This document shows, piece after piece, positions 1,460 through 48,665 of a stretch of 64,000 bases of DNA. The stretch lies in NCBI RefSeq assembly GCF_026210795.1, contig NC_089432.1:2232001-2296000 (forward strand), written 5' to 3'. Position 1 is the first letter of the stretch; each line of letters starts with the position of its first letter. This DNA is from Rhizophagus irregularis. Taxonomy: Eukaryota. Below the pieces are notes generated by a model, which was not told the DNA's origin, did no database searches, and was given only the letters and a program-made list of their open reading frames with translations. A program made the position numbers and the translations under genes.

Positions 1460-2205
1460 TTTGAATTGTGTAACTTGAAATAATTAAACCCCGTGACATG
1501 CCTCCGCTTGATCTATTTATTGTCAATAACTGTGTGCATTCCAATCAACTAATCCGATTTCAGTTAATAAAATATTACCTTAATCGGAATTTTTTTTTTG
1601 ATTCCCGTTAAATAATCCCTATTATTTTTTTTCGATCTTTTTTTTTAGACCGTATTGTTATTTTTCTTTAAAAAAATTTTTTTTTCACTCTTTTTGGATC
1701 GGATTATTGTCCTTTTTTTCAGAATTTTTTTTCGTACTTATTTTTTATTTTCGTACTTATTTTTTATTTTTGGATTCCTTTTTTCGGAAATTTCCCTTTT
1801 TTTTAAACTGATTTCTTTCTTTATACTTTTTCTTCCCCCAAATTTTTTTTAAATTCATTTTATTATTAAATAAAAAATAAAATATTATATTAAATATATT
1901 TACAAAATTATTATTTTTTTTTAAAAAAATCAATATAACATATGGGAAAATTGACCGACGTTGATGGAAAGATGAGTAAGATTTTTTAAATTAAATTGAA
2001 TGCTGGATAAATAGTTTTATTTTCAAATTCATAAAAATCAAAAAAAATTGATTTTTTTACATACTTTATAATTAATTAATTGAAGAATTTGTTGATTTAA
2101 TAATAGATTATTATAACCAAATCCATATCCAAAATTCTCTAAATAATCACCAAATTTTTGAATAAATATTTTAATTCAAGTGGTTTAGTTAAATTAATAA
2201 TTTTT
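1460..2205 (+). repeat. Dispersed non-coding repeat; diverged inverted copy at ~41772-42533
   Basis: Shared blocks such as TGTGCATTCCAATCAACTAATCC and ATTATTATAAxCAAATCCATAT appear as reverse complements at ~42470 and ~41850. Confidence 0.75.
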
Positions 2206-2359
2206 GGGCAAAATGAGTACCAAAAGAATAATAATAAATGAAATGAATAGATTCTAATACATTTAATTATACAAATATTTTTCCTAAGTTGGTTATAAGT
2301 TTAAGATTGACGTAATATAAAATAAGAAATAATTATAAAAGGGTTTAAAATTTAAACGC

Positions 2360-3563
2360 TGAGATCCCCCGATTCCCCCTGTCATCAATTTACAAGGTTG
2401 CCACATCGAACGGGCATTCTCATGGTCGAACGAACGAATGAGAACAAACAAACGAACGAACGAACAATTAAACGAACAAGCGATTAATCAACAACATAAT
2501 TAACAAGCGACACAATCACCGAACAATACACGTCAATATACAACAACATTCTTGGTTCACAACATAAATAGCGTTAGTAATATAAAACGTTGAACGGTAT
2601 AAAATAAAATTAACTTCTCTGAATTTTCCTCAATTTATATCCACTTTTACCTTTAATTTCAAACTTCGATAGCTCTCGCTACGAATTATTACTCTTCAAA
2701 AACATATATTTAATTCATCTTAACATTTTCATTTATTTAATTAAAATTAATTAAGCGAACATTAATTAAAGTTTAGGGCGAACCTATTACCTTTAATTAA
2801 CATTAAACTTCATTAACAAATAATTAAATGAAACTTATATTTTTATTGAGTTCTGTGGATGAGAACTGTGGAATTACTTTGAATTCCGTTCTCTATATAT
2901 ACAATTTTTATGCTACTTTCTATTCTATCTATATACTATCTTTTATGTTCTTTACATATTATCTTTGAACTATCTTTCTAATATACTATCTATATTTTAA
3001 ATACGCAAATATTACATCGTAAAGAAATAATTTATAACCCATCTTTTATGGCTGTGCTATCTTTTCTTTAAAATAATCTTTCAAATATTATGTCGTAAAG
3101 ATATAATTCATCTTTTGTGGCTGTGTTATCTTTTATATATGTTCTTTTTAATATGTTATCTTTTATATTCCATCTTTATGCCATCTTTTCATATTATCTT
3201 GTATATTATTTTGTGTTCTCCAATCTTTCCGACATTATTTTATATATTCTTTTAATCCACTTTATGTGTTTCGCTCATAATCTACCTTTTGTGGCTTATA
3301 ATTATTCTTTCTTGTCGTTCTCATTGTTAAAGATCGCTAAGCCGCAAATGATCGACTCTATTTATCCTATTGGTTCTTTGTCAATCATTCAATAAATATT
3401 ACATCATGTAGATCATTACTCTTCTTAAATGTTTATCCTTTTCGGCTAATTATTTATCCATCCACGCCAATCCACGATTAATTCGTTCGTTCTTAATACT
3501 TGATAATTACATTTGGTGGTTGAATTTTATCTTCTTTTCGTACTTGATATTTGGCCGTTTACA
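2360..3563 (-). repeat. 3' LTR (1204 bp)
   Basis: Direct repeat of 11643-12846 at a constant offset of 9283. No differences seen by eye, and the internal ORFs at 3117 and 12400 translate identically. Confidence 0.97.
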
Positions 3564-3577
3564 TTATCCCCCTCTTC
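3564..3577 (-). promoter_or_regulatory. Polypurine tract
   Basis: The minus strand reads GAAGAGGGGGATAA immediately before the TG of the 3' LTR. Confidence 0.85.
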
Positions 3578-3639
3578 GCTATTTGTGACCTCACAAATAA
3601 CTTTAAAAGAATCAAACTCGGGTCTCGTTCATAATAATT

Positions 3640-3870
3640 CTAATTGAATCGAACTCGGGTCTTATCGAATACCTCTTTTCCTTTGATTACTATTTTTGGT
3701 GTAAATTCCCTTCGATCATAAAATTTCTTTAACCATTCTCCATTTTGTGGTGTTTTCAATATTCTTCCGTCTAATTCTTTGAGTTTATATGCTCCATTTC
3801 CAAATTCTTCGTGAATTAAATATGGTCCTTTCCATTTGTTCTGTATTTTTAGTTCTGTGCTCTTCTCCAT
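3640..3870 (-). pseudogene. Integrase C-terminal (GPY/F, SH3-like) remnant
   Basis: KWKGPYLIHEEFGNGAYKLKELDGRILKTPQNGEWLKKFY is the Ty3/Gypsy GPY/F module. No HHCC or DDE core lies upstream. The frame is -1 relative to pol, with a TAA five codons before the ATG. Confidence 0.8.
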
Positions 3871-5963
3871 TTCTCCACCTCTTTAAATACTTTTCTCCAA
3901 CTACTATTGTCGTTTTTAACTTTTACTCGACTGTATCTTTTAGTATCTTTGTACACGCCCTGATTTTCTTCAAACATTCTAACCATGTCCAAATATTCAT
4001 CCTTCTTTAATGTTGGATATGATGATTTTTCCGTTTTCTTTGTTTCTCTTCCAATGTAATTTTTCCAACATACGTCGCCATCTTTTTCTAAAAATATCAC
4101 TATTGATTTATCTATTGTTTCTTTCAATCTGAATATTTCTTTTTCCATCTCATGATTTCCATGCGGAGTAATTAATCCTCTGTCAAAACTTTTCGTCTTT
4201 TGATAATAATATTCACAATATGGTGATTTGTCTAAAATTATTATATCTGTATCTTCATCGTATTCTACCATTCTTCTATTTATTTGTTCCACTACTTCTT
4301 TTCTGAATTTCCATTCTGTATCCATCTTCGATTCGTGAAATTCATCTTTATCTTTTCTTCTTCTTTTATAAGTATTGAATCTTACTTTTAATCCTTGTTC
4401 TTCCCATTCTTTAATTAAATTTTGTACTATACTTGTTTTTCCCAATCCGTCTACTCCATCGATTATTACTATCTCTGGTTGTTCCTCCACTATCTTCAAT
4501 AATCTACTTAGTGCGTCGGCGTTCGTATTTTCTTTTCCCGACCTATGTACTACTTCGAAATTATATTGCTGTAATTCCATTACCCATCTTGCTCTTCTTC
4601 CTTTCGGTATTTTTGCGTTCATTAATCCTTTTAATGCACTGTGATCTGTTATTACTTTAAATTTTCTATCGATTAAATACTTATGAAAATGTTGAATTCC
4701 CCAAACTATTCCTAAACATTCCAATTCTGTTATCGGGTAATTTTCTTCTGCTGGTAATAAACTTCTACTTGCATATGCTATTACTACTTCTTTTCCTTTT
4801 TCATCTTTTTGACTTAATACTGCACCTAATCCTTTTCCTGATGCATCTGTTATTAATAGAAATTCTTTCTTCCAATCTGGATGTCGCAATATTGGATATT
4901 GTATTAACTTTTCTTTTAATTTTTCAAACGCTTCTTGTTGTTCTTTTCCCCAAATGAAAGGTACTCCTTTCTTTCTCAAGTCGCTTATTGGTCTTGCTAT
5001 CTTTGAAAAATTCTTCACAAATTTTCTGTAATATGAACAAAGTCCTAAAAATGATCTTACTTCTTTCACCGTTGTTGGTGCCTTCATTTCTTTTATCTTT
5101 TCTATCTTTTTATCGTCCGGCCTCAATCCATCATTTCCTACTATATGTCCTAAAAATTCTATATTTCTTTCCAAAAATCTACATTTCTTTAATTTTATTA
5201 TCAAATTATTCTCCTGTAACTTCTTTAATACTTTTTCCACATGTTCCATATGGTCTTTCAAATTTCCTGAATATATCATAATATCGTCAATATATACTAC
5301 CACAAAATCGTTTATGTATTCTTCTAATATTTCATCCATTAATCTTTGAAATGTTGCTGGTGCATTCGTTAAACCGAACGGCATTACATTATATTCAAAC
5401 AATCCTTTCGAACATACAAATGCTGTTTTTTCTTTGTCTTCTTCTTTCATCTCTACTTGATTAAATCCTGCTGCTAAATCTATACTTGAAAACCATTTTG
5501 CTTTTCTATATTTGTCTAATAATTCATCCATTCTTGGTAAAGGAAAACTATCCATTATAGTTATCTTGTTTAACTTTCTATAATCAATACAGAATCTATA
5601 TTTGCCCGTTTTCTTTCCTGCTAACGTAACCGGTGAACTCCATGGACTTTTTGATTTCCTTATCCTTCCTTGTTTTAACAATTTATCCACTTCTTCGCTT
5701 ATAAATTTTGCCTTTTCATCTGTTTCTTTGTATCTTCTTTGCTTTATTGGTTCTACCCCCTCTTTTATCTTTATTTCATGTTGTGCTGCTTTTGTTCTTC
5801 CTTCTATTTCCCCGTCATATTCCAAAATATCTTGGTATTCTAATAGTAATTTTACCATATTTTCCCAAATTGGTTCTTCTACTTTCCCTATACTTAGTTT
5901 TTGCATAAATTTTTCACTTGGTTCGAGCATCTTTTCCGTCTCTCTCTTCAGAGCCAAGACTCT
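3849..5963 (-). CDS. pol: Pol: reverse transcriptase - RNase H - P-loop NMP/deoxynucleoside kinase-like domain
   Basis: RT motifs SPWSSP, RFCIDYRKLN, MPFGLTNAPATFQ, YIDD (5283-5294). RNase H motifs LITDASG, ELECLGI, TDHSAL, NADALSR. These are followed by IVIIDGVDGLGKTS (Walker A, 4431-4460) and IIILDKSPYCEYYYQ. Confidence 0.93.
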   Translation of the reverse strand, partial: RVLALKRETEKMLEPSEKFMQKLSIGKVEEPIWENMVKLLLEYQDILEYDGEIEGRTKAAQHEIKIKEGVEPIKQRRYKETDEKAKFISEEVDKLLKQGRIRKSKSPWSSPVTLAGKKTGKYRFCIDYRKLNKITIMDSFPLPRMDELLDKYRKAKWFSSIDLAAGFNQVEMKEEDKEKTAFVCSKGLFEYNVMPFGLTNAPATFQRLMDEILEEYINDFVVVYIDDIMIYSGNLKDHMEHVEKVLKKLQENNLIIKLKKCRFLERNIEFLGHIVGNDGLRPDDKKIEKIKEMKAPTTVKEVRSFLGLCSYYRKFVKNFSKIARPISDLRKKGVPFIWGKEQQEAFEKLKEKLIQYPILRHPDWKKEFLLITDASGKGLGAVLSQKDEKGKEVVIAYASRSLLPAEENYPITELECLGIVWGIQHFHKYLIDRKFKVITDHSALKGLMNAKIPKGRRARWVMELQQYNFEVVHRSGKENTNADALSRLLKIVEEQPEIVIIDGVDGLGKTSIVQNLIKEWEEQGLKVRFNTYKRRRKDKDEFHESKMDTEWKFRKEVVEQINRRMVEYDEDTDIIILDKSPYCEYYYQKTKSFDRGLITPHGNHEMEKEIFRLKETIDKSIVIFLEKDGDVCWKNYIGRETKKTEKSSYPTLKKDEYLDMVRMFEENQGVYKDTKRYSRVKVKNDNSSWRKVFKEVEKWRRAQN

Positions 5964-6473
5964 CTATTTAAAATTCTGGTGCATTTTGAATACCTCTCCT
6001 TCATCGTTGCTTTCATATTCTTCATCGTCTTCGCTCTCCTCACTTTCATATACCTCCCTTTCGTATCCTACTGGAATTGTTATTATTTCTCCCTGTTCTT
6101 CCATTCTTAAGGTATGATCTTCAAAATTTATTTTTGCATTATATAACTTCCATATATCATTTCCCAAAATTAGATCCTCTTCTTCTGAATCGATTACTTC
6201 AACTTCTCTTAGTATTTCCAATTCATCTTTGTATCTCAAAGTTATATTTGCCTTTCCTAACGCTGCTATCTTTTGCCCATTTGCTATTGTACATCTAAAT
6301 TTACTTTTTCCAAATATAGGTATATTCAATCTTCTTCTTAATTTATCTGTTATCACGCTTACTGCTGCTCCGGTATCTATTATTACGCTCACTAATTGAT
6401 CTTCAACTTCTAATTCTGTTCTCATTGCTGTAGTTTTCTTCTCTTCATTTTTCATAGTTCCCACCGAGTGTAG
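5964..6473 (-). CDS. Retropepsin aspartic protease, in frame with both gag and RT
   Basis: VIIDTGAAVSVI catalytic motif and LILGND motif. Bounded by the gag TGA (6474-6476) and a TAG (5964-5966) in the same frame. Confidence 0.9.
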   Translation of the reverse strand, partial: LHSVGTMKNEEKKTTAMRTELEVEDQLVSVIIDTGAAVSVITDKLRRRLNIPIFGKSKFRCTIANGQKIAALGKANITLRYKDELEILREVEVIDSEEEDLILGNDIWKLYNAKINFEDHTLRMEEQGEIITIPVGYEREVYESEESEDDEEYESNDEGEVFKMHQNFK

Positions 6474-8117
6474 TCAATTTTTTTCGTTTATACTTCTTGG
6501 TCTATATGTTCCTTCTCTCAATTGTTTATGATACTTAACATTCCCGTTTATTAATTGTCCATATGTTATATTCGCTCTACAATTTTTCACGTCTTCCACA
6601 ATATCATAAGGTGGTATTCCGTCAGTTAATCTTGGTCCATACTCTCTGGGTTTTGTTGGTCCTCCTGCTTCTCTCCATTTTCTTAGTCCTTCTGTTGGGT
6701 CGTAATAAGCTTGTCTTTTATTACTCCATCTCATTCCTTTTGGTCCTATTGGTCTACCCCCATTTTGTTCTGTGCGTTCAGGTATATAATTTGGTGCCGT
6801 TGTACCACTTGGCATTTCTCTATCATCCATTCTATTTCCTGCTTCCCTTAATTCTTCTTGTAAATTTCCCTCTTCATTATTATTTTTATATCCCACTATT
6901 GGACTCGTTCTTCTTGATTGTCTTCTTCCTTTTACTGCGTCATCTTTTGCGTATAATTCATTATGATAATTTAATTCTCCATCTTCATAATCATCGTAAT
7001 AGCCTTGTGTGTAATATATTCCGTTATATTGTGGTTCCTCGTATCCATATTCATCATAATAATATTCTTCTTGATCATCATATTCGTCTATCATATTTAC
7101 TCTTGCATTCCTTCCTTCGGGACAATTATTCTTGTAATGCCCCACTCTATTACATCCGAAACACGTTGGTACCCTATTCTGATTTGGTTGATAACTATTC
7201 CTATTACCATTATTTAATCTCCTTCCCATATTTGGTCGATACCTATTCCTATTATCGTCATTTAATCTTCTCTCCATATTTGCTACCATTCTTTCTAATT
7301 TACTAATTTTCGCCTTCTCTTTAAACATTTCAGCTAATTCGTCCTCATAATTTTCGTTCAATGGTTTTGCGAACATATTTTGTCTATTGTCATCTTTTCC
7401 GATATCTATCTTCGTACTAATTGGTATTCCTATTGCTTTTCTTAAAAATTCGTCTTTTGCACCTTCTTCTCTTACTGCTATTTCTATCGCCCCATTTAAG
7501 TTCGCTGGATTCTGTCTTCTAACTTGATATCCTATTGTTGGTTCTAATCCTTCGATGTAAAAATCTACTTGATATTCATCTGCTAATGCATGTCCTCTAG
7601 TTGCTATTCTTAATATTTGTCTAAATCTTCTTGTATATTCTTCAACACTTTCATTTGTTTCTTGTCGAGTTTTTCTTAATTCTAGCATTTTCTTTCTTCT
7701 AACATCCTCTCTGGTAAATCTTCTTTTTATTCTATGCTTTAAATCATTATCATTATCTGCATCTGCCCAATTCACTAAGTGACCTGCATTTACTTCTTTC
7801 ATTTCATTATACCATTGTGCTGCTGCTCCTCTTAAATGTGCTGCTGCGTATACCGCTTGTCTTACGCCATTAGCTCCCGCTGCTTTTCCGACTGCTGCAA
7901 ATGCTACATCGAATTGTCTAACCCAATCAGTAACATCTTCATCTTCTCTTCCATAAAAGAGTGGTATACTAATTGTTCCTCCTGCTTCATTTCCTGCATT
8001 TTCGATCCTATCTATCAAACTTCCTCCTGCTCCTACTGCTGCGTTCAAAGTATTAGCCGGATAGCCTAAAGCGTTCTCTATCAATCTCTTTACTTGATCC
8101 TCGGTTGCCATATTCAA
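6474..8117 (-). CDS. gag: Gag (capsid-like domain + CCHC zinc knuckle)
   Basis: Capsid-like motifs FYGREDED..WVRQF, HLRGAAAQWY and QETNESVEEYTRRF; knuckle CFGCNRVGHYKNNC. First ATG at 8111. Confidence 0.92.
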   Translation of the reverse strand: MNMATEDQVKRLIENALGYPANTLNAAVGAGGSLIDRIENAGNEAGGTISIPLFYGREDEDVTDWVRQFDVAFAAVGKAAGANGVRQAVYAAAHLRGAAAQWYNEMKEVNAGHLVNWADADNDNDLKHRIKRRFTREDVRRKKMLELRKTRQETNESVEEYTRRFRQILRIATRGHALADEYQVDFYIEGLEPTIGYQVRRQNPANLNGAIEIAVREEGAKDEFLRKAIGIPISTKIDIGKDDNRQNMFAKPLNENYEDELAEMFKEKAKISKLERMVANMERRLNDDNRNRYRPNMGRRLNNGNRNSYQPNQNRVPTCFGCNRVGHYKNNCPEGRNARVNMIDEYDDQEEYYYDEYGYEEPQYNGIYYTQGYYDDYEDGELNYHNELYAKDDAVKGRRQSRRTSPIVGYKNNNEEGNLQEELREAGNRMDDREMPSGTTAPNYIPERTEQNGGRPIGPKGMRWSNKRQAYYDPTEGLRKWREAGGPTKPREYGPRLTDGIPPYDIVEDVKNCRANITYGQLINGNVKYHKQLREGTYRPRSINEKN

Positions 8118-8218
8118 TATATTCTCTTGAAATAAATCTTGTAAATTATAATCAGATAATTCACTTTCGTTGTCAGAATTTTTAATATTTAATGAACTAT
8201 TCGTATCTGAATTTTGAC

Positions 8219-10066
8219 TTAAATCGCTATCCCTCTATTTATACCATTTTCAACTTCATCTTCAAACTCTTCTTCGTTAAAATTTTCAATATCTTCATCC
8301 CATCTTTCATCCGGACTTAGTATTTCTCCAATCTTTTCTGAATCATCTGTATTATCTTCTTCTGATTCTTCATTATCGCTTCTTTCGCCACTTTCTTCAC
8401 TATCTATTATTCCCGCTTGTTCTTTCAACAACTTATCTAATTTTTTCTTCAATTCTTTTTCCAACTCATCTTTATTTTCTTGAAAGATTTCAATGAATTC
8501 TTTATCTAAAATTTCTCCATCTGTATATCCCATACTAGTTAATCTCAACAATTCTTCTTCAGTTATTATTGTTCCAATATCTTCAAAAATCTTCTGTAAT
8601 CTTTTTACCCGATCATCAATTTCATCGATATTTTCTTCTTCACAATCTTTGCATACCATTCCTCTTACTCTAGACATATCATCCATCCATCCCAATCTAA
8701 ACATATCATTCATCCATCTTATTTCACATCTTTCACACCAAGTTGTATTCTTGTTTAACCACTTATGAATTTCTTTTCTTAATTCTTTATCTTCCAAATC
8801 TATCATTTCCATATATTCTTCCACAAATTCTTTAGTTACTATTATTCGATTATTTACCCCAAAACTCTTCATTCTTTGAATTTCTGACACATCTATTTCA
8901 TATCCCAATTTTTCTAAGTTGTTTCTTAATTCTATTAGCTCATCTTGTTCATTCTTCTGCGCTTCTTTAACACATTCCCCGCATTCGCTATCCGCTTCGT
9001 CCATTTCAAACCTTCTATTACCACATTTTTCACATCTTATTGTTTCTTTTTCTAACCATTCTTTTATCCTCAATTCTTTTTCCCTTTCATCCAATTCCTC
9101 TATCTCTTGAATTTTATCCATAAATATTCTCGTTACCAATATATCCATTTCTATCATCAACTTTATTCCTATTTTCCAAATGTACCTCAGTTGATCTTCA
9201 TCCATAACATTTGACCTTCTTCTTAATTCACTAAATTTCCATGATTTATCTCCTATTATTATCTCTAATTCTTCCTCGGAATCATTTTCCAATTCGTAAC
9301 TTGCTGGACTATCTTCACTTTCTGAATCTTCTGGCTCTTTTGTAAATCCCCTAGTATCTATAAATATTCTTATTATCTTTTGCATCATATTCTTGTGATA
9401 TTCGTGAACATTTTCTATATGTATGTTCTCATATTCTATTTTGGACATTAGTTCCTTTACTTTCTCCTCATTCATAGCTATTCCTTCTTCTTCATATAGT
9501 AACTCCCTAAACGTCTCTATTGCTCCTGTCTTTACTCGTAATGGTCCAATTTCTTTTGATGTGATTCTATACCATTGCCAAAATTTCTCAAACCTTCTTT
9601 CAACATCCCAATCTTCCAAAATATATTTGTGTTCTATTAATTCAGGATTTCCAATTAATCTATCAAATACTTCATTCCCCAGATTTCTTTCAATACAGTC
9701 TCTTACAATTACTAATATAATTGTTCGTAATCCCCTTTCTTTCATTTTTGGTTGTATTCTATATCTTATTGATTCCGTTATTCTATCCATTATGTCTCTA
9801 CATTTCCCTTTATGTATTGTATCTTCCCTTTCTGAATTATTCATACTTAATAAATCTAATACTCCCTTAATCGTTACGTCATTGTATATTATTATTGCAT
9901 CTTCAAATTTAAATAACGCGTCCCAAAATTTCTTGAATACTATTGGTTCATTTACTATTGGATAACATAATTCACAATTTAAACATTCATCCAATTCTTC
10001 CGTTCCCAATTCGTGTTCCTCTTTATGTGTTCTATATTCGCTTTCCCATTGATGGTACCATTCCAT
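8219..10066 (-). CDS. Extra ORF upstream of gag (615 aa, acidic, CxxC pairs, internal ~100-aa repeats); function unknown
   Basis: Long open frame co-oriented with gag inside the LTRs. Contains CLNCELC, CEKC..CGEC and CERC..CKDC. Confidence 0.8.
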   Translation of the reverse strand: MEWYHQWESEYRTHKEEHELGTEELDECLNCELCYPIVNEPIVFKKFWDALFKFEDAIIIYNDVTIKGVLDLLSMNNSEREDTIHKGKCRDIMDRITESIRYRIQPKMKERGLRTIILVIVRDCIERNLGNEVFDRLIGNPELIEHKYILEDWDVERRFEKFWQWYRITSKEIGPLRVKTGAIETFRELLYEEEGIAMNEEKVKELMSKIEYENIHIENVHEYHKNMMQKIIRIFIDTRGFTKEPEDSESEDSPASYELENDSEEELEIIIGDKSWKFSELRRRSNVMDEDQLRYIWKIGIKLMIEMDILVTRIFMDKIQEIEELDEREKELRIKEWLEKETIRCEKCGNRRFEMDEADSECGECVKEAQKNEQDELIELRNNLEKLGYEIDVSEIQRMKSFGVNNRIIVTKEFVEEYMEMIDLEDKELRKEIHKWLNKNTTWCERCEIRWMNDMFRLGWMDDMSRVRGMVCKDCEEENIDEIDDRVKRLQKIFEDIGTIITEEELLRLTSMGYTDGEILDKEFIEIFQENKDELEKELKKKLDKLLKEQAGIIDSEESGERSDNEESEEDNTDDSEKIGEILSPDERWDEDIENFNEEEFEDEVENGINRGIAI

Positions 10067-11626
10067 TATATGCTTTAGTTAAATTACTATGAATATCCAT
10101 CCAGAATCTCAATCGGATTCCTCTCTCTATATATATATATTTCACTCTTATCATTTCTATTTTTGATCTTCTAAACATTCTTTCATCTTTAAATAGATTA
10201 CTTCTTTCAATCTTAGATTCCATCTTTCGGTTCTATATATTTACTACGTCATATTTTACTATTAATTTTTTTGCTGCGCCTCGAAATTTCAAAAATTTTT
10301 CTAAGTCCACGATCTCCTCAGGCTGCGGAGGTTTTTTACTGCGCCATAAAATTTATCTTTTATCACCGATTTCCCTAATTTCACATGTCACATCTTTTCG
10401 TCACCGTGATTCATAGTTTCACTTATCACCTCTTTTTGTCACATCTTTTTGTCACATCTTTTTGTCACCAAGATCCATAATTTCACATATCACAAACTTT
10501 ACGAAAATTTTGGAGTTTCAAGGTTTGCGAATTTCCAATCTTTCTTATCGTCCACATAAATCCTTCTTACTATATATTCTATATTATATAAATTAATCTA
10601 TAACACACAAAATGTCGTTCTTTTCAGATAAATGTCTTTCTTTTCAAATAAATGTTCTTTTTCAAATAAATGTCCTTCTTTTCGGATTTTACTCTATTAT
10701 TAAATACTGCACGTAATGTTCATTATACGGCTCGTTAATGTGTAAATATCCTTCTATTTTTTCTTCTTTTAACGGAACATTGTAATGAAAGCGTGAACTA
10801 GGACACTACACCAGGAACCCTCATCTGAAATGTAGCCTAGGACCTGTAACAATACAACGTATCCGTCTTTTCCTTCTTCGTTGGCCGACTTGTTTCTCAA
10901 CGGGTGAATCTAACCTTCCAAAATCCAGTTTCGAAAGTCATCTGCTATCCTCAAAACTCATCTAACCAACTTTCTTAAATTGGTGGACCTATACTGGGCT
11001 TATCTCTATCTTTTTCCCATTGGGTAAAAGCATGATAGTTTACAGGTTTGTCCCATTTTATCCATTCAATGTTTCTTGATAGTAGGTGTCTTTACAATTT
11101 TCATTTCCCGTCCCCAAAGCAATTCGCGCGTTATTGAGCTGGGTATCCAGATTTGACGTAACCCATACGTTATAATCTTTAATGTCGAAGAATAAAAATT
11201 TTCCAATCTTGAGCATTTATCTAAAATCCAAACTCAGAGGTAACCCATACCACACAGATGAACCCCGGATAATACATTGGTGTTCTCCCATTATTAATCT
11301 TTATTCCAAAATTTATCTTTCGCTTCCACATCTCCTTATGAAATTTCTCAGGTACTTTATTCCCGAAAGAAACATTCTTGTGCTTTCTATCGATTAAGTG
11401 ATTACTTGCACAACTCCAAACTCCAATCTTTCGCCTTTTCAAGTTTTTAACTCGTTAAATCCTCATTGATTTATTGGTTCCTTTTGAACTCGTCAAAACC
11501 TGAAATCTAAAAATAAATTCTAAAATAAAATATTGATTAATAATACCTATCAGTGACTTACTAACGAAATTAAATTTTCATATTCATTATAATAATAATC
11601 ATGTGATGATGATCATTTCCTTTCTT

Positions 11627-11640
11627 GCGAGCATGCACCA
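11627..11640 (-). promoter_or_regulatory. Primer binding site, possibly tRNA-Gly
   Basis: The minus strand reads TA-TGGTGCATGCTCGC right after the 5' LTR. TGG pairs with tRNA CCA, and ...AUGCACCA resembles eukaryotic tRNA-Gly 3' ends. The tRNA identity is tentative. Confidence 0.75.
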
Positions 11641-11642
11641 TA

Positions 11643-12846
11643 TGAGATCCCCCGATTCCCCCTGTCATCAATTTACAAGGTTGCCACATCGAACGGGCAT
11701 TCTCATGGTCGAACGAACGAATGAGAACAAACAAACGAACGAACGAACAATTAAACGAACAAGCGATTAATCAACAACATAATTAACAAGCGACACAATC
11801 ACCGAACAATACACGTCAATATACAACAACATTCTTGGTTCACAACATAAATAGCGTTAGTAATATAAAACGTTGAACGGTATAAAATAAAATTAACTTC
11901 TCTGAATTTTCCTCAATTTATATCCACTTTTACCTTTAATTTCAAACTTCGATAGCTCTCGCTACGAATTATTACTCTTCAAAAACATATATTTAATTCA
12001 TCTTAACATTTTCATTTATTTAATTAAAATTAATTAAGCGAACATTAATTAAAGTTTAGGGCGAACCTATTACCTTTAATTAACATTAAACTTCATTAAC
12101 AAATAATTAAATGAAACTTATATTTTTATTGAGTTCTGTGGATGAGAACTGTGGAATTACTTTGAATTCCGTTCTCTATATATACAATTTTTATGCTACT
12201 TTCTATTCTATCTATATACTATCTTTTATGTTCTTTACATATTATCTTTGAACTATCTTTCTAATATACTATCTATATTTTAAATACGCAAATATTACAT
12301 CGTAAAGAAATAATTTATAACCCATCTTTTATGGCTGTGCTATCTTTTCTTTAAAATAATCTTTCAAATATTATGTCGTAAAGATATAATTCATCTTTTG
12401 TGGCTGTGTTATCTTTTATATATGTTCTTTTTAATATGTTATCTTTTATATTCCATCTTTATGCCATCTTTTCATATTATCTTGTATATTATTTTGTGTT
12501 CTCCAATCTTTCCGACATTATTTTATATATTCTTTTAATCCACTTTATGTGTTTCGCTCATAATCTACCTTTTGTGGCTTATAATTATTCTTTCTTGTCG
12601 TTCTCATTGTTAAAGATCGCTAAGCCGCAAATGATCGACTCTATTTATCCTATTGGTTCTTTGTCAATCATTCAATAAATATTACATCATGTAGATCATT
12701 ACTCTTCTTAAATGTTTATCCTTTTCGGCTAATTATTTATCCATCCACGCCAATCCACGATTAATTCGTTCGTTCTTAATACTTGATAATTACATTTGGT
12801 GGTTGAATTTTATCTTCTTTTCGTACTTGATATTTGGCCGTTTACA
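11643..12846 (-). repeat. 5' LTR (1204 bp)
   Basis: Direct repeat of 2360-3563 with TG...CA ends. Confidence 0.97.
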
Positions 12847-13274
12847 ACGCACCTGCGTTTGAATGCACACCCCATGGTATAAGTCAAAAATGAGGTTTTA
12901 ACCCTTTTTGTCACAATAAGTAAAGTTGTAGAGGAGGCAAAAATACGCATATAACGTGAGGTTTCAAGGTTTATTTATAAGTGTATAAGGTATAAACTGC
13001 GTTTTATTCAATTCTCTGGTAGCATTTTTATTATATAAAAATTTCCAAAAAGGGGGTGCGTTTAAAACGCAGGCGCGTTCAAATTTTAATCCCTTCATAA
13101 TATTAAAGTTTTTTTGAAAATACTTCTAAAAATTTAATCAAAAAAATGAGGGTGAATGAAAAAATAGGGAGAGTAAAAGGGAATAAAAGAAATGAGGGGG
13201 AGTGAAGAAGGAACGAAATGGAGCAAAGGGGAATAAAAAATGAAAGGAACAAAGGGTAGTGTAAAATTGTGAAC

Positions 13275-16690: not shown

Positions 16691-17919
16691 GTAGTTGCTG
16701 GTTATAAATAACTTTTCTCTATATTTATTTATTTATTTATTATAATTTGTCGTTAATTCACTTAAAAGTAAATGTATATAATAATACTATATATTACTAA
16801 TATCATACTATAAAACTAACAAACTTATATAGCACCTAACTACTAATACTAACTATTTTTATTTTTCCTTTATTATACGTTGGTAATTTTTCACGATCTT
16901 CTCTAATTCTTTATCATCCTCTTCGTTAACATCGTTTTGATTATTACCTATTTCATCCTCATTTTATAATCTACTTCGAAAAGACACGTTTAAATATTCA
17001 TATTCTTGAACTTTTTATGTTAGAACGCCTCGTTTAACTGCTTCTTCTCATTCTTTCCTTGATATAACAATCTTGTAATTGCTGGTCTAAAACGTTTATG
17101 GAACCATCCGAAGCTCTTAATATCTTTTGGATTCCTATGAACTTTCCAAACTTTTTCAAGTCCTCCTTGTTCTATGGAATTCGTTATCTCTTCTATTCTT
17201 TCTTGATTTGTAAAAGTCGCCAAGAGTACTACTTTCCATTAAATCTTACTTTTTTATCCTTTATAGTCTTGTTTCCATAATCTCAAGCTCCTGTTTTATT
17301 CTCTCCTTTTTTTTAAGAAATTTATATTCTTGTCACTTGTATGCTTCTTTTTTGTCCTCGAGCGAATTATTTCTATTGAACCATTTAAACATATGCGGGG
17401 TCCCGTTTATATTCAATCCAATGAAACGACATTCCTTTGGCTGCGAAATCATTGTTGTAATCTTTCAATGATTTCATTTCAGCTTTAACGGTTTGAAATT
17501 TATAAAATTTTTTAATCTTTAGACTTTTAAATATCCTAATGCTTTTAAACTTAAGTGGCTACAACTTGTGCCAGAATAATAAATTACGTGATTCTTTTAC
17601 TGTACATATCTTCCTTTGCTAACCAGAATAATTTCGGTAAATTATTTATGCGATTTCTTAGATTTTTAAGATTTACCGCAATCTTTTTTATGCACTCCTG
17701 AAGTTTATATTTCACAATTACGTCTTTGCTTATTTCTGTGTAACAATTCTCGTGAATTATTGCCGATCATGAAAATGAATATTTGGAAAATTTGGAAAAC
17801 AAATGTACTAATTAAATGAATGATCGACACGGAGACACGCGACATCTATAAATATAATTTTTTTGTTTCACAAATACAATTTCACTAATTCTTAAGTTTC
17901 AAACTTTTGTAATTTAAAT

Positions 17920-19880
17920 ATGTCCGGATTTACTCTACCAACCGGAGATTCATATAATGAGTGTATTAATTGGATTGAAGAAGCTATTGGTAAAAAACAT
18001 ATTAAATATTATGAATACAACCAATTTAACAACATTGAAGAAATTGGTTCCGGGAGCTTTGGAACTGTCTACCGTGCGAAATGGAAAAATTCTCACAGTT
18101 ATATAGCGTTAAAATCTTTTTTTAATTTAAACAATGTTACAATTAAAGAAATTGTTAATGAGGTAATAATAAATGTAATACAGTATAATATATCATTTTC
18201 ATTTATTGTTAATTCTAATTTAAAATTATATTCATGATTTAGCTTAAACTTCAGCGTGAAGTGGATTTCCATGAGAATATTATTCATTTTTTTGGCATTA
18301 CAACACGTATGATAAATATTATATTATGTAATATCAGCTTTATAAAATTTGAACTAAAGTTAAATGATTATTTTTTTTAATAGAAAATCAAAATGATAAT
18401 TTTAAAAAATATTGGTTAGTAATGGAGTATGCTAATAATGGTACTCTTCATGAATATTTGAAGAGACATTTTGATACTCTTAATTGGAGCGATAAATTTA
18501 GTCTGGCACTTCAGTTAGCTCATGCTGTATTATGCCTTCATGATGAAGGAATCGTTCACCGTGATCTGGTAATTTATTTATATTTACTAATTTATATTAT
18601 ATTAAATTTATATATTAATTCATTTATTTAACATATTTAAATATTAAATAGCATTCTAAAAACATATTAGTCCGTCAAAATACCATCAAGTTGGCAGATT
18701 TTGGACTGTCAAAAAGGATTGATGAATCATATAGGACGCGATCAGATTTACTTGGTGTAGTTCCATATATTGATCCAAAAAAATTTAATATACAACCATA
18801 TTCTTTAGATAAAAAAAGTGATATTTATAGTATTGGTGTACTTCTGTGGGAGATATCAAGTGGTCAGCTGCCTTTTGATGAAATATCATCTTATGGTTTA
18901 ATTGTACGAATTCCACAAGGTCTTAGAGAAATACCTGTTCCCGACACACCTACTGCTTATGTTAATCTTTATACTGGTATGTGTTATTATCGAATGTTAT
19001 TAAATTATCATTATTTTGATCAGATAAAAATTAATTATTTTTTTTTTTAGAATGTTGGGATGGAGAACCAGATAATCGTCCGACTATTAGCCAAGTAGTT
19101 GCCAAGTTAAAAGTATTAAATAGTAGTAGTCAAATTAACAATGATTTTAGTAAAATTGTTGATGAGATAATTAATCTCCCTAATAAGACTGGGGATGAAG
19201 TAGAAAAACAAGAAATTCTTAATTATCTCAAAAATCATAGTGTGACTTTAAAAGAAATTTATAATTGGTTATTAAATGATCGAAATAATACGAATTCTAT
19301 TGTTCTACTTGGAGATTTTAATCTTTTTGGAATTGAAATTAATGTTGATAAAAAAAAAGCATTTGAATTATATCAAAAGGCTTCAAATTTAGGGAATACA
19401 GATGGAGTAGCTAGTTTAGGAGATTGCTATTGGAAAGGAGACGGAACTGATGTTGATAAAAAGAAGGCATTTGAATTATATCAAAAGGCGGCAGATTTAG
19501 GAAATGCAACTGGAATAAATAATCTAGGATATTGTTATGAAAATGGAATTGGAACAAACATCGATAAGAAAAAAGCATTTGAATTATATCAAAAGGCAGC
19601 AAAATTAGTACTTTCAGCTGGAATAAATAATTTGGGATATTGTTATGAAAATGGAACTGGAATCAGAATGGATAAGAAAAAGGCATTTGAGTTATTCCAA
19701 AAGGCAGCTAATTTAGGAGATAGTATAGCACAATATAATTTTGCTTTAACGTATGAATATGGAGGAAGAGTTGCTAGAAATATAGATCAAGCAATTTATT
19801 GGTATAAAAGATCTGCTGATCAAGGATATCAAAAAGCTCAAAATAAATTGAAAAAATGCTTAAAAAGAAAGAGGGAGTAA
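17920..19880 (+). CDS. Protein kinase (TKL/tyrosine-kinase-like) with 5 C-terminal Sel1 repeats; 5 exons, ~548 aa
   Basis: Exons 17920-18162, 18243-18306, 18384-18568, 18652-18976, 19051-19880, all GT-AG, total 1647 nt in frame. Motifs [37 protein letters not shown]. Confidence 0.92.
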
Positions 19881-21130: not shown

Positions 21131-21456
21131 ATGTGCATAGATCATGCGTCCCAACAATTTATCTTTTTTCATGGGTTTGTTCCGGAATCCATTTACCCAC
21201 CAAATTTCTACCCACGTGACTTTTTGCCGGCATTATGGAATTAAGATATTATCCATGTATGTGATGAATAATTGAAAAGTTTTGCCGAAAAAACTTTTTC
21301 TGCCGATCGCTCAGACCAAAAAATTAGTGAAAGAAAATTTTGATTTTACAGTTTAACTATATTTTTAACCCATAAATTTTATTACAAAATCACACTCCTC
21401 AGCATAAAAAAGTTTTATTTTTGATATAAAAATATACATTTTAATATTTTACAATC

Positions 21457-23808
21457 ATGTCAAATATTACTACTCGTTCAAAAGCTAAAACAGCTGATAA
21501 AAGATCTTTAGACGACTCTGAAATTGTTAAAGAAGTTTATTCTGTTGATAAAGATATACAAAACAACACAATAAACGAAGAATTTAATAGGCCCAATAAG
21601 ATTAGAAACATAGAAACTCTTGATAATACAGAAGCAATGGAAATAGAATTTGAAAAAAATTCTTCTTCGTCTCAATCATCAGTATCACATGACTTAAACA
21701 AAGGATCTACAAGTGAACCAATGGAAACAGACAAAGAAAATATTACTCCTTTGAGTGATCAACACAATAACTCTAATCCCAATAAAGGAAAAGCAACGGA
21801 GACATTACAAATTGAACAAATTGACTACAACGACTCTGAAACACAAAATTCAGCCACAGAATCTTTTTCAGTTTTCATCGCAAAAGATCAATTTCCAAAT
21901 GAAGGAAATAACTTCGAGATAAGAAAAAAAATAAGGGACGCATTTTCCAACCATATTAATGATATCAATAAAATCAATTGGGAAAAACACCAATATCTCA
22001 CAGTCTTTATTATAGAATTTTCTAGAAAAGAAATTTTTGAAAAATACGTTAGTAAACGTCACCTTATTTTAAATGCTATTATACACCCATACGACTCCTC
22101 AAACATTGAGGCATATATACAAAGAGATGTAGAAAATCAAGCAAAAAATTCAGTTAAACTAATAGATGTTCCGATATTTTATGAAACTGAAGCACTCTTA
22201 AAAAACATAATTAATATAACTGGAAAAGAAATCAAAAATTTTCACTCAAATGAAAAAAAACTTATACAGAAATTTGAGTTTGAAATGAAACGATACAGAA
22301 ATAACAACCAAGGCCGTAGAAACGGCAGATTTGCCCCCAAACTACCACAATATAAGACAGTATATATTGAATTCAAAACTGCAGCAGGTGCTAAATACTT
22401 AATGGACAAAGGATGGTCCTTAGATATTGAAGATTTTAACATTAGAATCTTACCAACTAACAATAATCACGAGGCTTACTTAAAACGTACGTCAAAAGGA
22501 TATAAAATAACTGGTCTTCCTAATAATACGAACGTAAAAGATATGACTAAAATAATAACCCTCATAAATGGAGAAACTTGTTCAATTCCCAAAGCCAAGA
22601 CTAGATTTTGTTCTAAAATAGCATACGTCATGGTTGATCCCAAAAATTTTGAAGATAAAATTAAAAAAATCACCGCATTCAATACATCATTATATATTAT
22701 TCCACTTGATAATAACGTTAAAACTTGTATACAATGTGGCTCACCTGAACACATGATACAAGAATGCAACTCTGAACATACTATTTCGCCTAATGGACAA
22801 AAATTCTTCAAACCCATCAATATCCCTCGTAACACTGCTAAAATAGTGGTTAGTAAAAGCATATCCGAAAATTATGGATCTCTTATGAAGATCAATGAAG
22901 ATTTCAATAGACAAAAAATTTCAAAAACATCAACCAAACCTAATCAACCAACCAATAGAAACTCAAACCAACAACAACAATGGGCCCAACGCCAAATGAT
23001 TTATAACAATCAACCAATTTCTCCTACACGCCCTAGACAGAATATCAACAATCAACCAAATAATAATAACAATAACAACGATTGTAACTCAACTCAAATT
23101 TCTCTCGATATTGCTACCTTAAATGACAAAATGAAATGGGCTGAAAAAATGATTAAAGATTTAGAAAAACAGGTAGACGATCAAAAAAAAGAAATTGAAC
23201 AACTTAAAGTATTTGCGAAAGAAGTCTCCGCACACAATAATTACGTTAAAGAATCCATGGATAAAATGGTTAATTTCCAACAGACTATGTCTGAAAGAGA
23301 TATTGTTAAAGACGCTCAACTCAAAGAAATTTTAAATGCAGTCAGAGGACAATCACACCATCAACCTCAAGAATATCATCACCAAGAAGAGCAGTTACAA
23401 ATACAATACATCCCTGAACAAAATCTGAATCCTCAAATGCAATCGAACCAACCAAGACGAAATTCCAAAGAAGGAAGAATTTCGCCATCATACCAACAAT
23501 ACAATACGCCACAACACAAAATATACCAGTTCAATAACTACAATCAAGAACATCATGAAATGATTAATAGCGAATATTATAACGCTAATTCACAATCGAA
23601 TGAAGGATGGGACGAAAATTATGGTAGTTCATCATCCTTACATACACCTTCTTCTGCATCTTATAATAATGAAACTGAAGATATATCACAAGAAGAGCGT
23701 TTAAGTCAATACGGCAACGAATACAATAACCACGATCAAGATAATGACGTTTCATCACAAGAACAAAGCAAAGGATTTACAGGATATATAAAATCCCTTG
23801 TCCGTTAA
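21457..23808 (+). CDS. LINE ORF1 (RNA-binding/gag-like; CCHC knuckle, coiled coil, N/Q-rich tail)
   Basis: 783 aa; CIQCGSPEHMIQEC; heptad-like segment LNDKMKWAEKMIKDLEKQVDDQKKEIEQL. Confidence 0.88.
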   Translation: MSNITTRSKAKTADKRSLDDSEIVKEVYSVDKDIQNNTINEEFNRPNKIRNIETLDNTEAMEIEFEKNSSSSQSSVSHDLNKGSTSEPMETDKENITPLSDQHNNSNPNKGKATETLQIEQIDYNDSETQNSATESFSVFIAKDQFPNEGNNFEIRKKIRDAFSNHINDINKINWEKHQYLTVFIIEFSRKEIFEKYVSKRHLILNAIIHPYDSSNIEAYIQRDVENQAKNSVKLIDVPIFYETEALLKNIINITGKEIKNFHSNEKKLIQKFEFEMKRYRNNNQGRRNGRFAPKLPQYKTVYIEFKTAAGAKYLMDKGWSLDIEDFNIRILPTNNNHEAYLKRTSKGYKITGLPNNTNVKDMTKIITLINGETCSIPKAKTRFCSKIAYVMVDPKNFEDKIKKITAFNTSLYIIPLDNNVKTCIQCGSPEHMIQECNSEHTISPNGQKFFKPINIPRNTAKIVVSKSISENYGSLMKINEDFNRQKISKTSTKPNQPTNRNSNQQQQWAQRQMIYNNQPISPTRPRQNINNQPNNNNNNNDCNSTQISLDIATLNDKMKWAEKMIKDLEKQVDDQKKEIEQLKVFAKEVSAHNNYVKESMDKMVNFQQTMSERDIVKDAQLKEILNAVRGQSHHQPQEYHHQEEQLQIQYIPEQNLNPQMQSNQPRRNSKEGRISPSYQQYNTPQHKIYQFNNYNQEHHEMINSEYYNANSQSNEGWDENYGSSSSLHTPSSASYNNETEDISQEERLSQYGNEYNNHDQDNDVSSQEQSKGFTGYIKSLVR

Positions 23809-23856
23809 ATTCCATTCAGTACAAGTATATATCTCTCAAACTATCAGGGTGGACTA

Positions 23857-26800
23857 ATGATGGACAACAATATTAATAATACCGATCAGCCTCTAAACCT
23901 GATCACTGATTCAAATTCTTTATTTTCTTTATCTCCTTCTCTTCCTTATTCTCAAAATAATTCACAAAATCTAAAAAACTACAAAAAAAATTATTATAAT
24001 AATTATAAAAATCAAAAAAATAATTCTTCTTATTTTTCTTCTTTTAATTCACATTCGCACATTAATTTTGCAACTTTAAATTTACAAGGATCCTTTGAAA
24101 AGAAAAAAAGAGATTTAATTTCATATATGATTGAGGCCGACATTCATTTCTTATTTTTAACAGAAACACATCTAAAAGACTCTAAGAACAAGTCAAACAA
24201 AAAATTAAATCCTATAAAATTATCGTACCCTACAAAACACAAAGAACACAAAAATTTTTACATTGTACACAACCCTGCAATCGATCATTCTGCTAGTGGT
24301 GTTTCGTGTATAATTTCCTCCCTTTTATACAAACACATTCAAAGGATCGATCATATTCCTGGTCGATTGTTACATGTTACTTTCTTTTTCAGAAAACAAG
24401 AACAACTACATATAATAGGCTTATATTTACCGCCTATTACATCCGCTAAAGACAACGAATCAACTTTAAAAGAGATTATTTCTTATTTAAAAACTTATTT
24501 CTTTACAAAAAATAATTACAAAAAAACTATAATCATGGGAGATTTTAATATAAATCCTCATAAACCAAATTCAACTTTTACAAATGTTCAATTAGACGAC
24601 CCTATAAATTCTAATCACGTGACTTCAGCGTATTATCACAAAAGCATTTTAACCATCCTTAAAAATAATCGCTTTAAAGACATTGTCAAATTTTTTAATG
24701 ATACACCATCTTATACCTTTAGCAATACCTCTGGAAATACGTCTTATATTGATATTATTTTTGTTTCACCAAACTTTTTATCACATTGTTTATTTGGTAC
24801 TATAGCTACTGAACCAATACGTACTGATCACCGATTAATAGTGATCACTTTGAACAACAAATTTTTTTATTCCCCTAATCAAAATATTTTAAACGATTCT
24901 CTCAATGAAATTGAAATGTGTAAAAAGAATTCACTTTCTTATAATGAAAGATATAATTATAAAAAAATAACAAAAGAACAGTGGGTAGACTTTAAAAATT
25001 TTGTATGGAATAATTTTCAATCAATTTCGACACGTTCACAAACACACATTAACCCACAAAAACATGTCAACATTGTTTTTGAAAACATAGTACAAAGTAT
25101 TCACAAAGCTATAAACGCTATAGGATTTCCTATAATTAAACAAAACATGCATCAATACACTTATTCTTATTCGATTAGAATTTTAGAAAATGATCTTTAT
25201 TATATAGCATCCCTTATTAATAGATTAGAAAATTATTTTAATCCTAAAACACATCGATCACGATATTATTTCTATGATACCACTTTTTGGGAGGGACCTA
25301 AAAAATTAAATCGATTAAAAAGAATCGTTTCAAATTTAGACTTACGAAATTTATCAATTAATACACGTGATGTCGTGTGGCCAACTTCTTTGACTGCTCC
25401 TTATTATTTAACTATTTTGAATACTTTAATTAAAATCAAAACATTCATTAATAATTCATTAAATGAACAAATTAGTCATTTTCAAAAAAATAAAATAGAA
25501 AAATTTATTAATAGACGTGACGATGATCTAAGACTAAACCAGAAAAGGATGTTAACATCTTTATTAGACCGAGTGCCAGAAAAAATCAAAATGGACAAAT
25601 TAATATTTAAAGATGAATACGATATCACAACTTTTACAACAGATAAGGATGAAATAGAAGAAAAAGCAATAGACCATTTCAGCAACATTGGTAAAGTAAT
25701 ACAATCACCTTTATCTTATGATCCATCATCACCTTTACGTGAGCCCTGGAAGTCTATATATACGCCTATTAATGTGGCATCACAAGAAAATATTAACAAA
25801 TTAAATAGATTGATCACAATGGACGAGTTGCAGGAAGCAATTAAAGATTTACCGACAAAAAAGTCTGCTGGACCTAATAAGATCAGCTATGAAATTATTA
25901 AACAATTACCTTTACAAATTTTAGAAGTCATTTTATCACTTTTTAATTATATACTTATCAATGAAGTTACTCCAGAACAATTTAAACTCGCTCTCCTTTA
26001 TCCAATTCCAAAACCCACTTGGTGGAACTACGATATTAATCATACGCGTCCTATTATATTATTAGATTGTTTTCGCAAACTTTTAGTTAAAATTATTAAT
26101 TCAAGACTTAATTTATATTTAAGCACGAATAACATTCTCCAACATAATAATCAAGCAGGTGTACAAGGAGCATCTTGTAATGAAATTATTTTATACATTC
26201 AATCTATTATAGAACATCAAAAAGATACAAATAACCCGTTATATCTTTTACTCCAAGATCTTAGTAAGGCTTACGATAGAATAGATATTCCCTTGCTTTC
26301 GTTAGCTTTAAAAAGAATTAACATACCCCCTAATATAATCAAATTCATAGAAAATCTTTTTATAGGACATCACAATAGAATTATATTAGCTGATACTTTA
26401 TCTGATCCTTATGAATTAAAACAGGGTATAATTCAAGGAGAAATAATTTCACCGCTCTTATGGGTCATTTATTACGACCCAATGTTCGCCGCCATCAATG
26501 ATTCCCCATACGATGGATATAAATTACATGCAACGCTCCCGATGAATATTTATCGAAAAGATGATTATCATGAAGAAAAACTAGAGTTAAAATTGATTGG
26601 ATACCTGGACGATACCACTTGGTTTGCTAATAAAATCGATGACCTAGTAGCCAATTTAGCAATAGCAGATGATTTTTATTCATTAGCTAATATCAAAATC
26701 AATAAGGAGAAAACAAAATTATTAACGAACGATAAAACACTTTTAGCAAAAGATGACAAACATATTCCATTTTATTTTGGTAATGATCTTATTAATATAG

Positions 26801-48555: not shown

Positions 48556-48665
48556 TCTATCGCTGTGTTTTTGTTGGCAACTGTCTATTTTGATTTGTCC
48601 TTTCCTTTTATCCATTATTCTAATGATCATTTCTTTTAAATCTGTTGTCATCATATTTTCACGTT

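Follow-up and report, generated by a model that had tools for sequence, protein, structure and literature searches.

Ty3/gypsy retrotransposons (Metaviridae, e.g. Ty3 of Saccharomyces cerevisiae) are bounded by long terminal repeats (LTRs) with TG..CA ends, contain a primer-binding site (PBS) and a polypurine tract (PPT), and encode a gag protein with a CCHC knuckle followed by protease (PR), reverse transcriptase (RT), RNase H (RH) and an integrase (IN) with a GPY/F module. Non-autonomous LTR derivatives that are moved by autonomous relatives are also well known, as in LARD, TRIM, BARE-2 and Dasheng/RIRE2, and in helper-donor Ty1 assays. The element described here lies at 2356-12850 in a stretch of 64,000 nucleotides of the Rhizophagus irregularis genome (contig NC_089432.1, positions 2,232,001 to 2,296,000), which was analysed as a whole and is called the window below. 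It is a freshly inserted Ty3/gypsy-type LTR retrotransposon copy of Rhizophagus. The ends, the PBS and PPT, the CCHC gag and the order of the pol domains are those of Ty3/gypsy, whereas an extra open reading frame (ORF) of 619 codons, ORF0, precedes gag, a P-loop kinase follows RNase H, the integrase is a separate ORF in the relatives, and this copy has neither the integrase zinc finger nor the DDE core, nor a chromodomain. This minus-strand copy, with open ORF0, gag, PR and RT-RH-kinase frames, lacks about 1 kb of its integrase ORF, and we consider it probable that it was inserted by the integrase of intact members of the same family.

The two LTRs (2360-3563 and 11643-12846) are 1204 bp each and show 0 differences in a pairwise alignment, with the identity ending exactly at both borders, which argues that little time has passed since insertion. 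On the + strand the LTR begins with TGAGAT and ends with TTTACA, giving the TG..CA ends, and ACGC is present at both borders of the element as a 4-bp target-site duplication (TSD); the probability of a random 4-bp match is 1/256. The PBS, TGGTGCATGCTCGCAAG, is located 2 nt past the 5' LTR and the PPT, GAAGAGGGGGATAA, directly abuts the 3' LTR; the coding strand of the element is the minus strand. Thus, the identical LTRs of equal length, the clean ends, the perfect TSD and the intact PBS and PPT that had been recognized in a first-pass annotation of the sequence are all confirmed. The terminal features are as follows.

2356..2359, no strand: TSD ACGC, left on the + strand (sequence; paralogous empty site with a single ACGC)
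2360..3563, minus strand: 3' LTR, 1204 bp, TG..CA (0 differences from 11643-12846)
3564..3579, minus strand: PPT region GCGAAGAGGGGGATAA (minus strand), adjoining the 3' LTR (sequence read)
11640-11624, minus strand: PBS, 2 nt past the 5' LTR (sequence read)
11643..12846, minus strand: 5' LTR, 1204 bp (identical to the 3' LTR)
12847..12850, no strand: TSD ACGC, right on the + strand (sequence)

In run X2, a diverged paralogue of the repeat that flanks the element passes directly from 2359 to 12873, with one ACGC and no insertion. Because this paralogous empty site carries a single ACGC, the TSD is real and the element is nested in another repeat; the flank bins have a very high summed contig depth. 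The complete LTRs with TG..CA ends, the clean 4-bp TSD and the uninterrupted paralogous empty site together form the signature of integrase-mediated insertion, and they stand against an integrase-independent entry, e.g. by cDNA that recombined with a copy already in place or was captured at a break in the DNA, which we regard as very improbable. The insertion site itself (2330-2359 / 12847-12875) lies in a near-palindrome (TTTAAACGC ... GCGTTTGAA) of another high-copy repeat, and several contigs connect the left and right flanks without the element. No tRNA genes were found by a tRNA scan of the 64-kb window, and Rfam gave zero matches over 2000-13200 at E ≤ 0.1.

The integrase features of Ty3/gypsy elements (HHCC, DDE and GPY/F past RNase H) are found in the relatives L002, P0036 and P0116 (L denotes loci on metagenome contigs, and P denotes proteins), whereas the set is incomplete in this copy. 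A six-frame Pfam scan of 2356-12850, in which stops were read as X, yielded no match to rve, Integrase_H2C2, zf-H2C2 or chromo at E ≤ 1. When four integrase-bearing relatives were compared by tblastn with the whole window, the sole match was the tail at 3643-3867, with no core or zinc finger, in agreement with the earlier statement that no DDE integrase core is visible. What is left of the integrase is its GPY/F tail, in an ORF (3882-3640) that overlaps the TAA (3851-3849) of the RT-RH-kinase ORF (5963-3849); an ATG at 3870-3868 would make the tail product 76 aa. The first-pass annotation had called this tail the only remnant, overlapping the kinase stop, and out of frame. The first part is correct, but the frame is not disturbed: since the integrase of L001, L002 and L006 is likewise encoded in the -1 frame, the tail in this copy stands in the ancestral integrase frame. 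The integrase of the relatives stops right after the GPY/F module, and the chromodomain is absent here. The remnant and the junction discussed below are located as follows (the slash marks the breakpoint here and in the text).

3640..3882, minus strand: tail ORF, 80 codons from stop to stop, -1 frame relative to the kinase ORF (ORF list)
3643..3849, minus strand: integrase C-terminus remnant, GPY/F module KIQNKWKGPYLIHEEF...RVRFN, 66 aa (matches P0116 at 64/66)
3837..3851, minus strand: deletion junction CTAAAAAT/ACAGAACA (loose contig ends at 3850 and 3837; comparison with L001 and L002)

Relatives were collected with the kinase region (pol residues 485-704) as the query at E ≤ 0.001, with 877 candidates. 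Of the 39 protein matches, those with a named source came nearly all from R. irregularis DAOM 197198 and some from R. clarus; the best was 98% identical, and none reached 100%. An integrase zinc finger and/or core lies beside the kinase in seven of the 39 (P0028, P0029, P0030, P0032, P0033, P0036 and P0040). A scan of metagenome contigs yielded 14 loci out of 142 pattern matches, so that relatives with the kinase and, behind it, a complete integrase ORF are known from R. irregularis, R. clarus and soil metagenomes. The locus L002 (6288 bp, kinase 81% identical) contains the end of gag, a TGA, PR, a 709-codon RT-RH-kinase ORF and an integrase ORF of 410 codons, which lies in the -1 frame and encodes HHCC, DDE and the GPY/F tail; an LTR-sized non-coding stretch and then an ORF resembling the start of ORF0 follow. 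L006 and L001, the latter with a kinase 88% identical, likewise have their integrase ORF in the -1 frame, where it overlaps the end of the kinase ORF. The integrase of the intact relatives is a separate ORF of about 408-410 aa that begins no more than a few bases from the kinase stop. The pairing of kinase and integrase in the seven proteins and in L002 supports the earlier suggestion that the element derives by deletion from an RT-RH-kinase-IN parent.

The first-pass annotation had also raised the possibility of a division of labour in which this copy supplies the kinase and a partner supplies the integrase; such a partner would be expected to have no kinase. This copy does have a kinase and no integrase. 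However, a kinase is present directly upstream in every integrase-bearing relative seen (L001, L002, L004, L007-L011, L013, P0028, P0032 and P0036), so the integrase-bearing L001, L002, P0028, P0032 and P0036 have kinases of their own, and the kinase is ancestral to the family. Because it is conserved in all family members, the kinase is not a speciality of this copy, and a division of labour has next to no probability in our view. In a clade with a kinase about 60% identical, a conserved mini-ORF of about 50 aa was observed between the kinase and the integrase, in its own frame (motif M-T-I-E-N-I-G ... Y-H-C-V-L-F-E-D ... P-F-E), with its stop and start near those of its neighbours. Its positions, read from the sequence, are:

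L003 2224-2409: mini-ORF
L005 854-1009: mini-ORF
L007 649-828: mini-ORF
L010 959-1117: mini-ORF
L013 613-777: mini-ORF

The extent of the deletion was defined by blastn against L002, in which L002 195-2996 corresponds to window 6653-3863 and L002 4032-4222 to window 3850-3660. L002 2997-4031 (1035 bp) has no equivalent in this copy, in which the two aligned blocks are separated by 12 nt. The junction in this copy reads ...GAACTAAAAAT/ACAGAACAAATGG, the right side beginning with ACAGAAC, and the left side in L001 reads ...GAATTAAAAAT/GGAACAA. Three contigs of X2 and one of X5 track the tail to 3850 and then continue into sequence encoding WREKQWSG; in P0036, P0041 and P0116, these integrase residues stand immediately before the tail. 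From the left side in L001 and these right-side contigs, both breakpoints share at least AAAAAT. Three contigs of X1 track the kinase side to 3837 and then diverge. If these contigs represent the left side of the parent, the direct repeat at the breakpoints is possibly 14 nt long (3850-3837); if not, they may stem from additional junction-bearing copies. Within the integrase ORF, the deletion preserves the frame; it runs from the first codons to the residues just ahead of the GPY/F module, so that about 12 codons remain at the N-terminus and 66 at the end. In L001 and L007 an ATG is located 2 nt past the kinase stop; the same place here is ATA, and this copy keeps an ATG 19 nt upstream of the kinase stop. 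The junction, formerly placed at about 3850-3885, has thus been relocated to 3837-3851, and the deletion left the tail in its original frame.

The family is present in very many copies (the contigs that matched the element numbered 12837 in X1, 10733 in X2 and 9429 in X5), as would suit a junction produced by collapse of the integrase region while the repeat was being assembled. However, a 179-nt contig of X4, which has a different study and organism label and is the only run that bridges the junction, extends over 3752-3930 with 0 differences, and therefore the junction is not considered an artefact of this assembly. Moreover, the junction keeps the integrase frame and sits in a direct repeat, like real deletions, and we assign only a very slight probability to an assembly artefact. 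The X4 contigs cover only 3574-4930 of the element, with exact matches, as RNA of this copy might; they were not used as evidence of expression, because the type of this run is a guess and contigs cannot show transcription.

The source of the integrase was searched for with P0041, a C-terminal integrase fragment of a close relative, among longer proteins at E ≤ 1e-10 (239 candidates). The search yielded 78 proteins, with the top group from R. irregularis DAOM 197198. P0116, a protein of 408 aa with H2C2, rve and rve_3, belongs to an R. irregularis DAOM 197198 cluster that comprises 68 sequences, and its last 66 residues show 2 differences from the tail of this copy. Intact-looking integrase ORFs of the same sub-family are therefore plentiful, and intact members of the family are the most likely source of the integrase. 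Because the ends are normal and a 4-bp duplication is present, we infer that the integrase of a partner inserted this copy. Mobilisation in trans, as proposed in the first-pass annotation, is thus plausible as a deduction, given the R. irregularis integrase ORFs of the P0116 type; integrase-bearing contigs also occur in X2 and X5.

In the proposed mechanism, either a template switch by reverse transcriptase or slippage between the short direct repeats would have produced the deletion. The shortened cDNA, still with normal TG..CA ends, would then have been integrated by the integrase of an intact copy, generating the 4-bp duplication. The particle that gave rise to the deletion might itself have contained this integrase; if, instead, the copy belongs to an established non-autonomous lineage, the protein might have come from elsewhere in the shared coenocytic cytoplasm. 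We rate these two versions about equally. Alternatively, an autonomous copy may have been inserted first, and 1 kb may have been lost afterwards by replication slippage or repair between the same repeats. Short direct repeats suit a loss in the chromosome as well as template switching, and no other copy carrying the junction has been demonstrated. On the other hand, the 0 differences between the LTRs leave little elapsed time, all other ORFs are open, and internal deletions during reverse transcription are a common origin of defective LTR-element copies. None of these three points is decisive, and we consider deletion after insertion unlikely, although well above negligible.

Several observations weigh against the preferred reading, insertion of an already shortened copy by the integrase of an intact relative. 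A further copy combining this junction with another TSD was not seen, and a search with the 80-aa tail protein gave 11 matches (integrase C-termini or other shortened forms), none of which extends across the junction. X1 shows only the other base at several sites (e.g. 4473), and the X1 genome may lack this exact copy. No blastn similarity was found between the LTR of L002 and that of this copy. The closest integrase-bearing copy was compared at the protein level. The C-terminus ...EKWRRAQN, which is shared with other gene models, does not mark the deletion: gene models with this ending were considered as recurrences of the junction and rejected, because they stop upstream of the breakpoint and the same ending exists in the integrase-bearing L001 and L006.

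Other shortened gene models are P0050 and P0005, the latter ending EKWR/MVKEIL. The end of P0005 fits a join of two copies of a 10-nt repeat present in the sequence of this copy, and both shortened forms may be gene-model artefacts. Integrase variants of 301-304 aa (P0113 etc.), in which part of the core is absent, were considered as amplified defective forms and not used, since the gap could be a predicted GT..AG intron. Neither a relative of the kinase nor an exact copy of the junction was found among viral contigs.

On the minus strand, the element consists of the 5' LTR, PBS, leader, ORF0, gag, PR, RT-RH-kinase, the GPY/F tail ORF, PPT and 3' LTR, and all of the ORFs apart from the integrase are open in this copy. 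The internal features are listed below.

10079..11623, minus strand: leader of about 1.5 kb, with no minus-strand ORF of at least 80 codons (ORF list)
8219..10078, minus strand: ORF0, 619 codons, acidic, with several CxxC pairs, preceding gag (open frame)
6474..8234, minus strand: gag ORF with Retrotrans_gag (E 1.6e-13), Ty3_capsid and a CCHC knuckle; TGA at 6476-6474 (Pfam)
5964..6473, minus strand: protease ORF (DTGA), in the frame shared with gag and RT; TAG at 5966-5964 (Pfam and sequence)
3849..5963, minus strand: RT-RH-kinase ORF, 704 codons, open; TAA at 3851-3849 (ORF list)
5139..5615, minus strand: reverse transcriptase domain, pol residues 117-275, YIDD present (RVT_1, E 2.4e-44)
4563..4952, minus strand: RNase H domain, pol residues 338-467 (RT_RNaseH, 1.2e-37; RT_RNaseH_2, 6.9e-37)
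3852..4511, minus strand: P-loop kinase domain, fold like those of deoxynucleoside kinase (dNK) and thymidylate kinase, fused C-terminal to RT-RH (pLDDT model and alignment)
3661-3646 and 3624-3609, minus strand: 16-nt motif GACCCGAGTT(C/T)GATTC, two copies, in the end of the tail ORF and the 3' untranslated stretch (sequence read)

A profile that includes the RT-RH columns matched the structures of Ty3 Gag-Pol (7q5b, E 1.7e-124) and Ty3 RT (4ol8, E 1e-123), and the family was therefore assigned to Ty3/gypsy. ORF0 had no Pfam match and no Atlas lead, and a blastp comparison with the partial ORF that closes L002 yielded no match at E ≤ 1e-3; the first 90 residues of ORF0 recur with 100% identity in the gene model P0005. 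The gag frame is -1 relative to ORF0, with an overlap of 16 nt. The 16-nt motif also occurs twice past the integrase stop in L002 (4243-4310), and it resembles the T-arm of tRNA.

The context of the gag stop, TGA-CTA-CAC-TCG-GTGG, is identical here and in L002, although synonymous sites between the two are saturated, which suggests programmed read-through of the gag TGA. At the PR/RT boundary, TTTTAAATAG...AGTCTTGGCTCTGAAGAGAGAGA (5925-5995 on the minus strand; L002 855-926), the nucleotides are conserved but the reading frames differ: owing to a difference of one GA dinucleotide in the length of a GA repeat, there is an in-frame TAG here and a change of frame is needed in L002. At the kinase stop, an ATG that opens an ORF of at least 40 codons lies from -8 to +6 nt of the first base of the stop in 10 of 13 loci, L014 being omitted because its match ends within the kinase domain. 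The exceptions are L011 (at -16), L010 (at +41) and L009 (none). The stop and the next start take the forms AUGA, UAAUG and UAA-NN-AUG, and this arrangement suggests stop-restart translation of the ORFs past the kinase stop.

The kinase was modelled by AlphaFold from an alignment of 16 sequences (pLDDT 84.6, pTM 0.83). The best Foldseek matches of the model were deoxyadenosine kinases of Giardia and Mycoplasma, the dNK of Drosophila, many thymidylate kinases and archaeal adenylate kinases (E down to 2e-7, TM 0.5-0.73; for deoxyadenosine kinases, dNK and thymidylate kinases, TM 0.6-0.73 and probability 1.00), all pointing to an NMP-kinase-type fold with a lid. The P-loop is GxDGxGK[ST]; in G-V-D-G-x-G-K-T/S, all 16 aligned sequences agree at the D, at both G and at the K, with slight variation elsewhere in the motif. 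Among these sequences (48-95% identical), the P-loop, FN-T-x-KRRR, EW-x-FRK, LDKSPY-x-EY-x-YQ, SFDRG and CW-x-NY-x-GRE are conserved. The domain thus shares with dNK (PF01712) and Thymidylate_kin (PF02223) the fold, the P-loop, an Asp-x-Ser motif past strand 3 and a lid-like Gly-Arg-Glu motif. Two points weigh against its identification as such a kinase: Pfam Thymidylate_kin scored 21.7 bits, under the 27-bit cut-off, and L-D-K-S-P-Y has Lys in place of the Arg of the DR(Y/H) or ERS motif that is a feature of thymidylate and deoxynucleoside kinases. A further difference is that no significant relative was found among solved structures by sequence alone.

The ratio of non-synonymous to synonymous substitution (dN/dS) of the kinase is 0.061 for this copy versus L001, 0.059 versus L002 and 0.054 for L001 versus L002, compared with 0.091 for RT-RH, with synonymous sites close to saturation in the L002 pairs. 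These ratios indicate that the kinase is under strong purifying selection, stronger than that on RT-RH. At E ≤ 0.001, kinase matches were found in 48 cluster representatives among 1.84 billion. Two of the ten distant matches examined (36-37% identical), P0071 (a cluster of 71) and P0078, are metagenomic fusions of NUDIX and kinase, and P0112, a longer member of the matched cluster P0077, has the same layout, judged by its likeness to P0078. These three fusions, on metagenome contigs with an AT-rich type of composition, are the nearest kinase relatives outside retroelements. No relative was found in a scan of bacterial and archaeal genomes with P0071; look-alikes in the Atlas are bacterial NUDIX-kinase fusions and were treated as leads only. 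By analogy with dUTPase-bearing retroelements, we predict that the domain phosphorylates nucleosides or nucleotides and would thereby raise the local supply of dNTPs for reverse transcription. We found no description in the literature of such a kinase in any LTR retrotransposon, and in the excerpt of PMC8647823 kinases appear only as host gene families.

The window has a GC content of about 27%. Apart from the element, it contains four Sel1-repeat paralogues on the + strand (138-815, 17884-19880, 32009-34029 and 52454-54603), which have internal repeats of 108 bp and are 66-92% alike, upstream regions included; according to PMC8647823, Sel1-like genes form one of the families that have expanded in R. 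irregularis. A non-LTR retrotransposon (LINE) is located at 21445-29736 (+), with ORF1 (787 codons) and ORF2 (1975 codons; endonuclease, RT and RNase H) in one frame with a single stop between them. The Sel1-repeat paralogues and the LINE are neighbours to be expected in this fungus. A run of broken ORFs at 44600-51000 (-), with RVT_1 (E 1.8e-21) at 47266-48102, is probably a degraded retroelement. A tandem array of 36 bp and its inverted copy (57415-58470 and 59240-59966) have arms of 694 nt with a complementarity of 91%, separated by 1111 nt; the reading frame that is open across the array had no family match.

Compared with known systems, the loss of integrase is ordinary and needs no new mechanism, since dependence on relatives is known among LTR elements. 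As in LARD/TRIM-type elements, the ends and cis signals are intact and an essential protein is gone, and the related integrase ORFs of R. irregularis may belong to an autonomous family in the same genome; here, however, only the integrase is gone and gag, PR and RT-RH are open. According to PMC8647823, the repeats that have expanded recently in R. irregularis include Gypsy elements, and the distinction between autonomous and dependent copies therefore matters for reading the dynamics of this genome.

More speculatively, a Glomeromycotan Ty3/gypsy lineage may have captured a nucleoside or nucleotide kinase, with the NUDIX-kinase fusions as its nearest relatives, which feeds reverse transcription in a coenocytic, largely non-dividing host. 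Its pol would be translated cistron by cistron through a chain of short-range stop-restart events, the integrase being made by a restart of its own, and such modularity would ease the clean loss of integrase, giving rise to RT-competent, integrase-dependent parasites of the family like this copy. We put this picture forward tentatively, and as a whole it is rather doubtful. Stop-restart (termination-reinitiation) translation is used by influenza B M2, caliciviruses, victoriviruses and the SART1 LINE; the stop-proximal ATG in the relatives of our element is similar. We know of no LTR retrotransposon that uses this strategy, although we made no literature search for one, and the overlapping stops and starts suggest a mode of translation that, to our knowledge, has not been shown for these elements.

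In non-primate lentiviruses a dUTPase is located between RNase H and IN. Fungal Gypsy elements (Postia placenta, Phanerochaete chrysosporium and Tuber melanosporum) and some retroviruses also carry a dUTPase, which, according to PMC2864245, was assumed to permit replication in non-dividing cells. If our prediction is correct, the kinase would be the second kind of nucleotide-metabolism enzyme, after dUTPase, captured by LTR retroelements, and its selection, stronger than that on RT, would point to dNTP supply as limiting retrotransposition in arbuscular mycorrhizal fungi. In short, the family described here and the dUTPase-bearing retroelements have in common an enzyme of nucleotide metabolism captured into pol, but the enzyme in this family is a P-loop kinase of the dNK/thymidylate-kinase fold.

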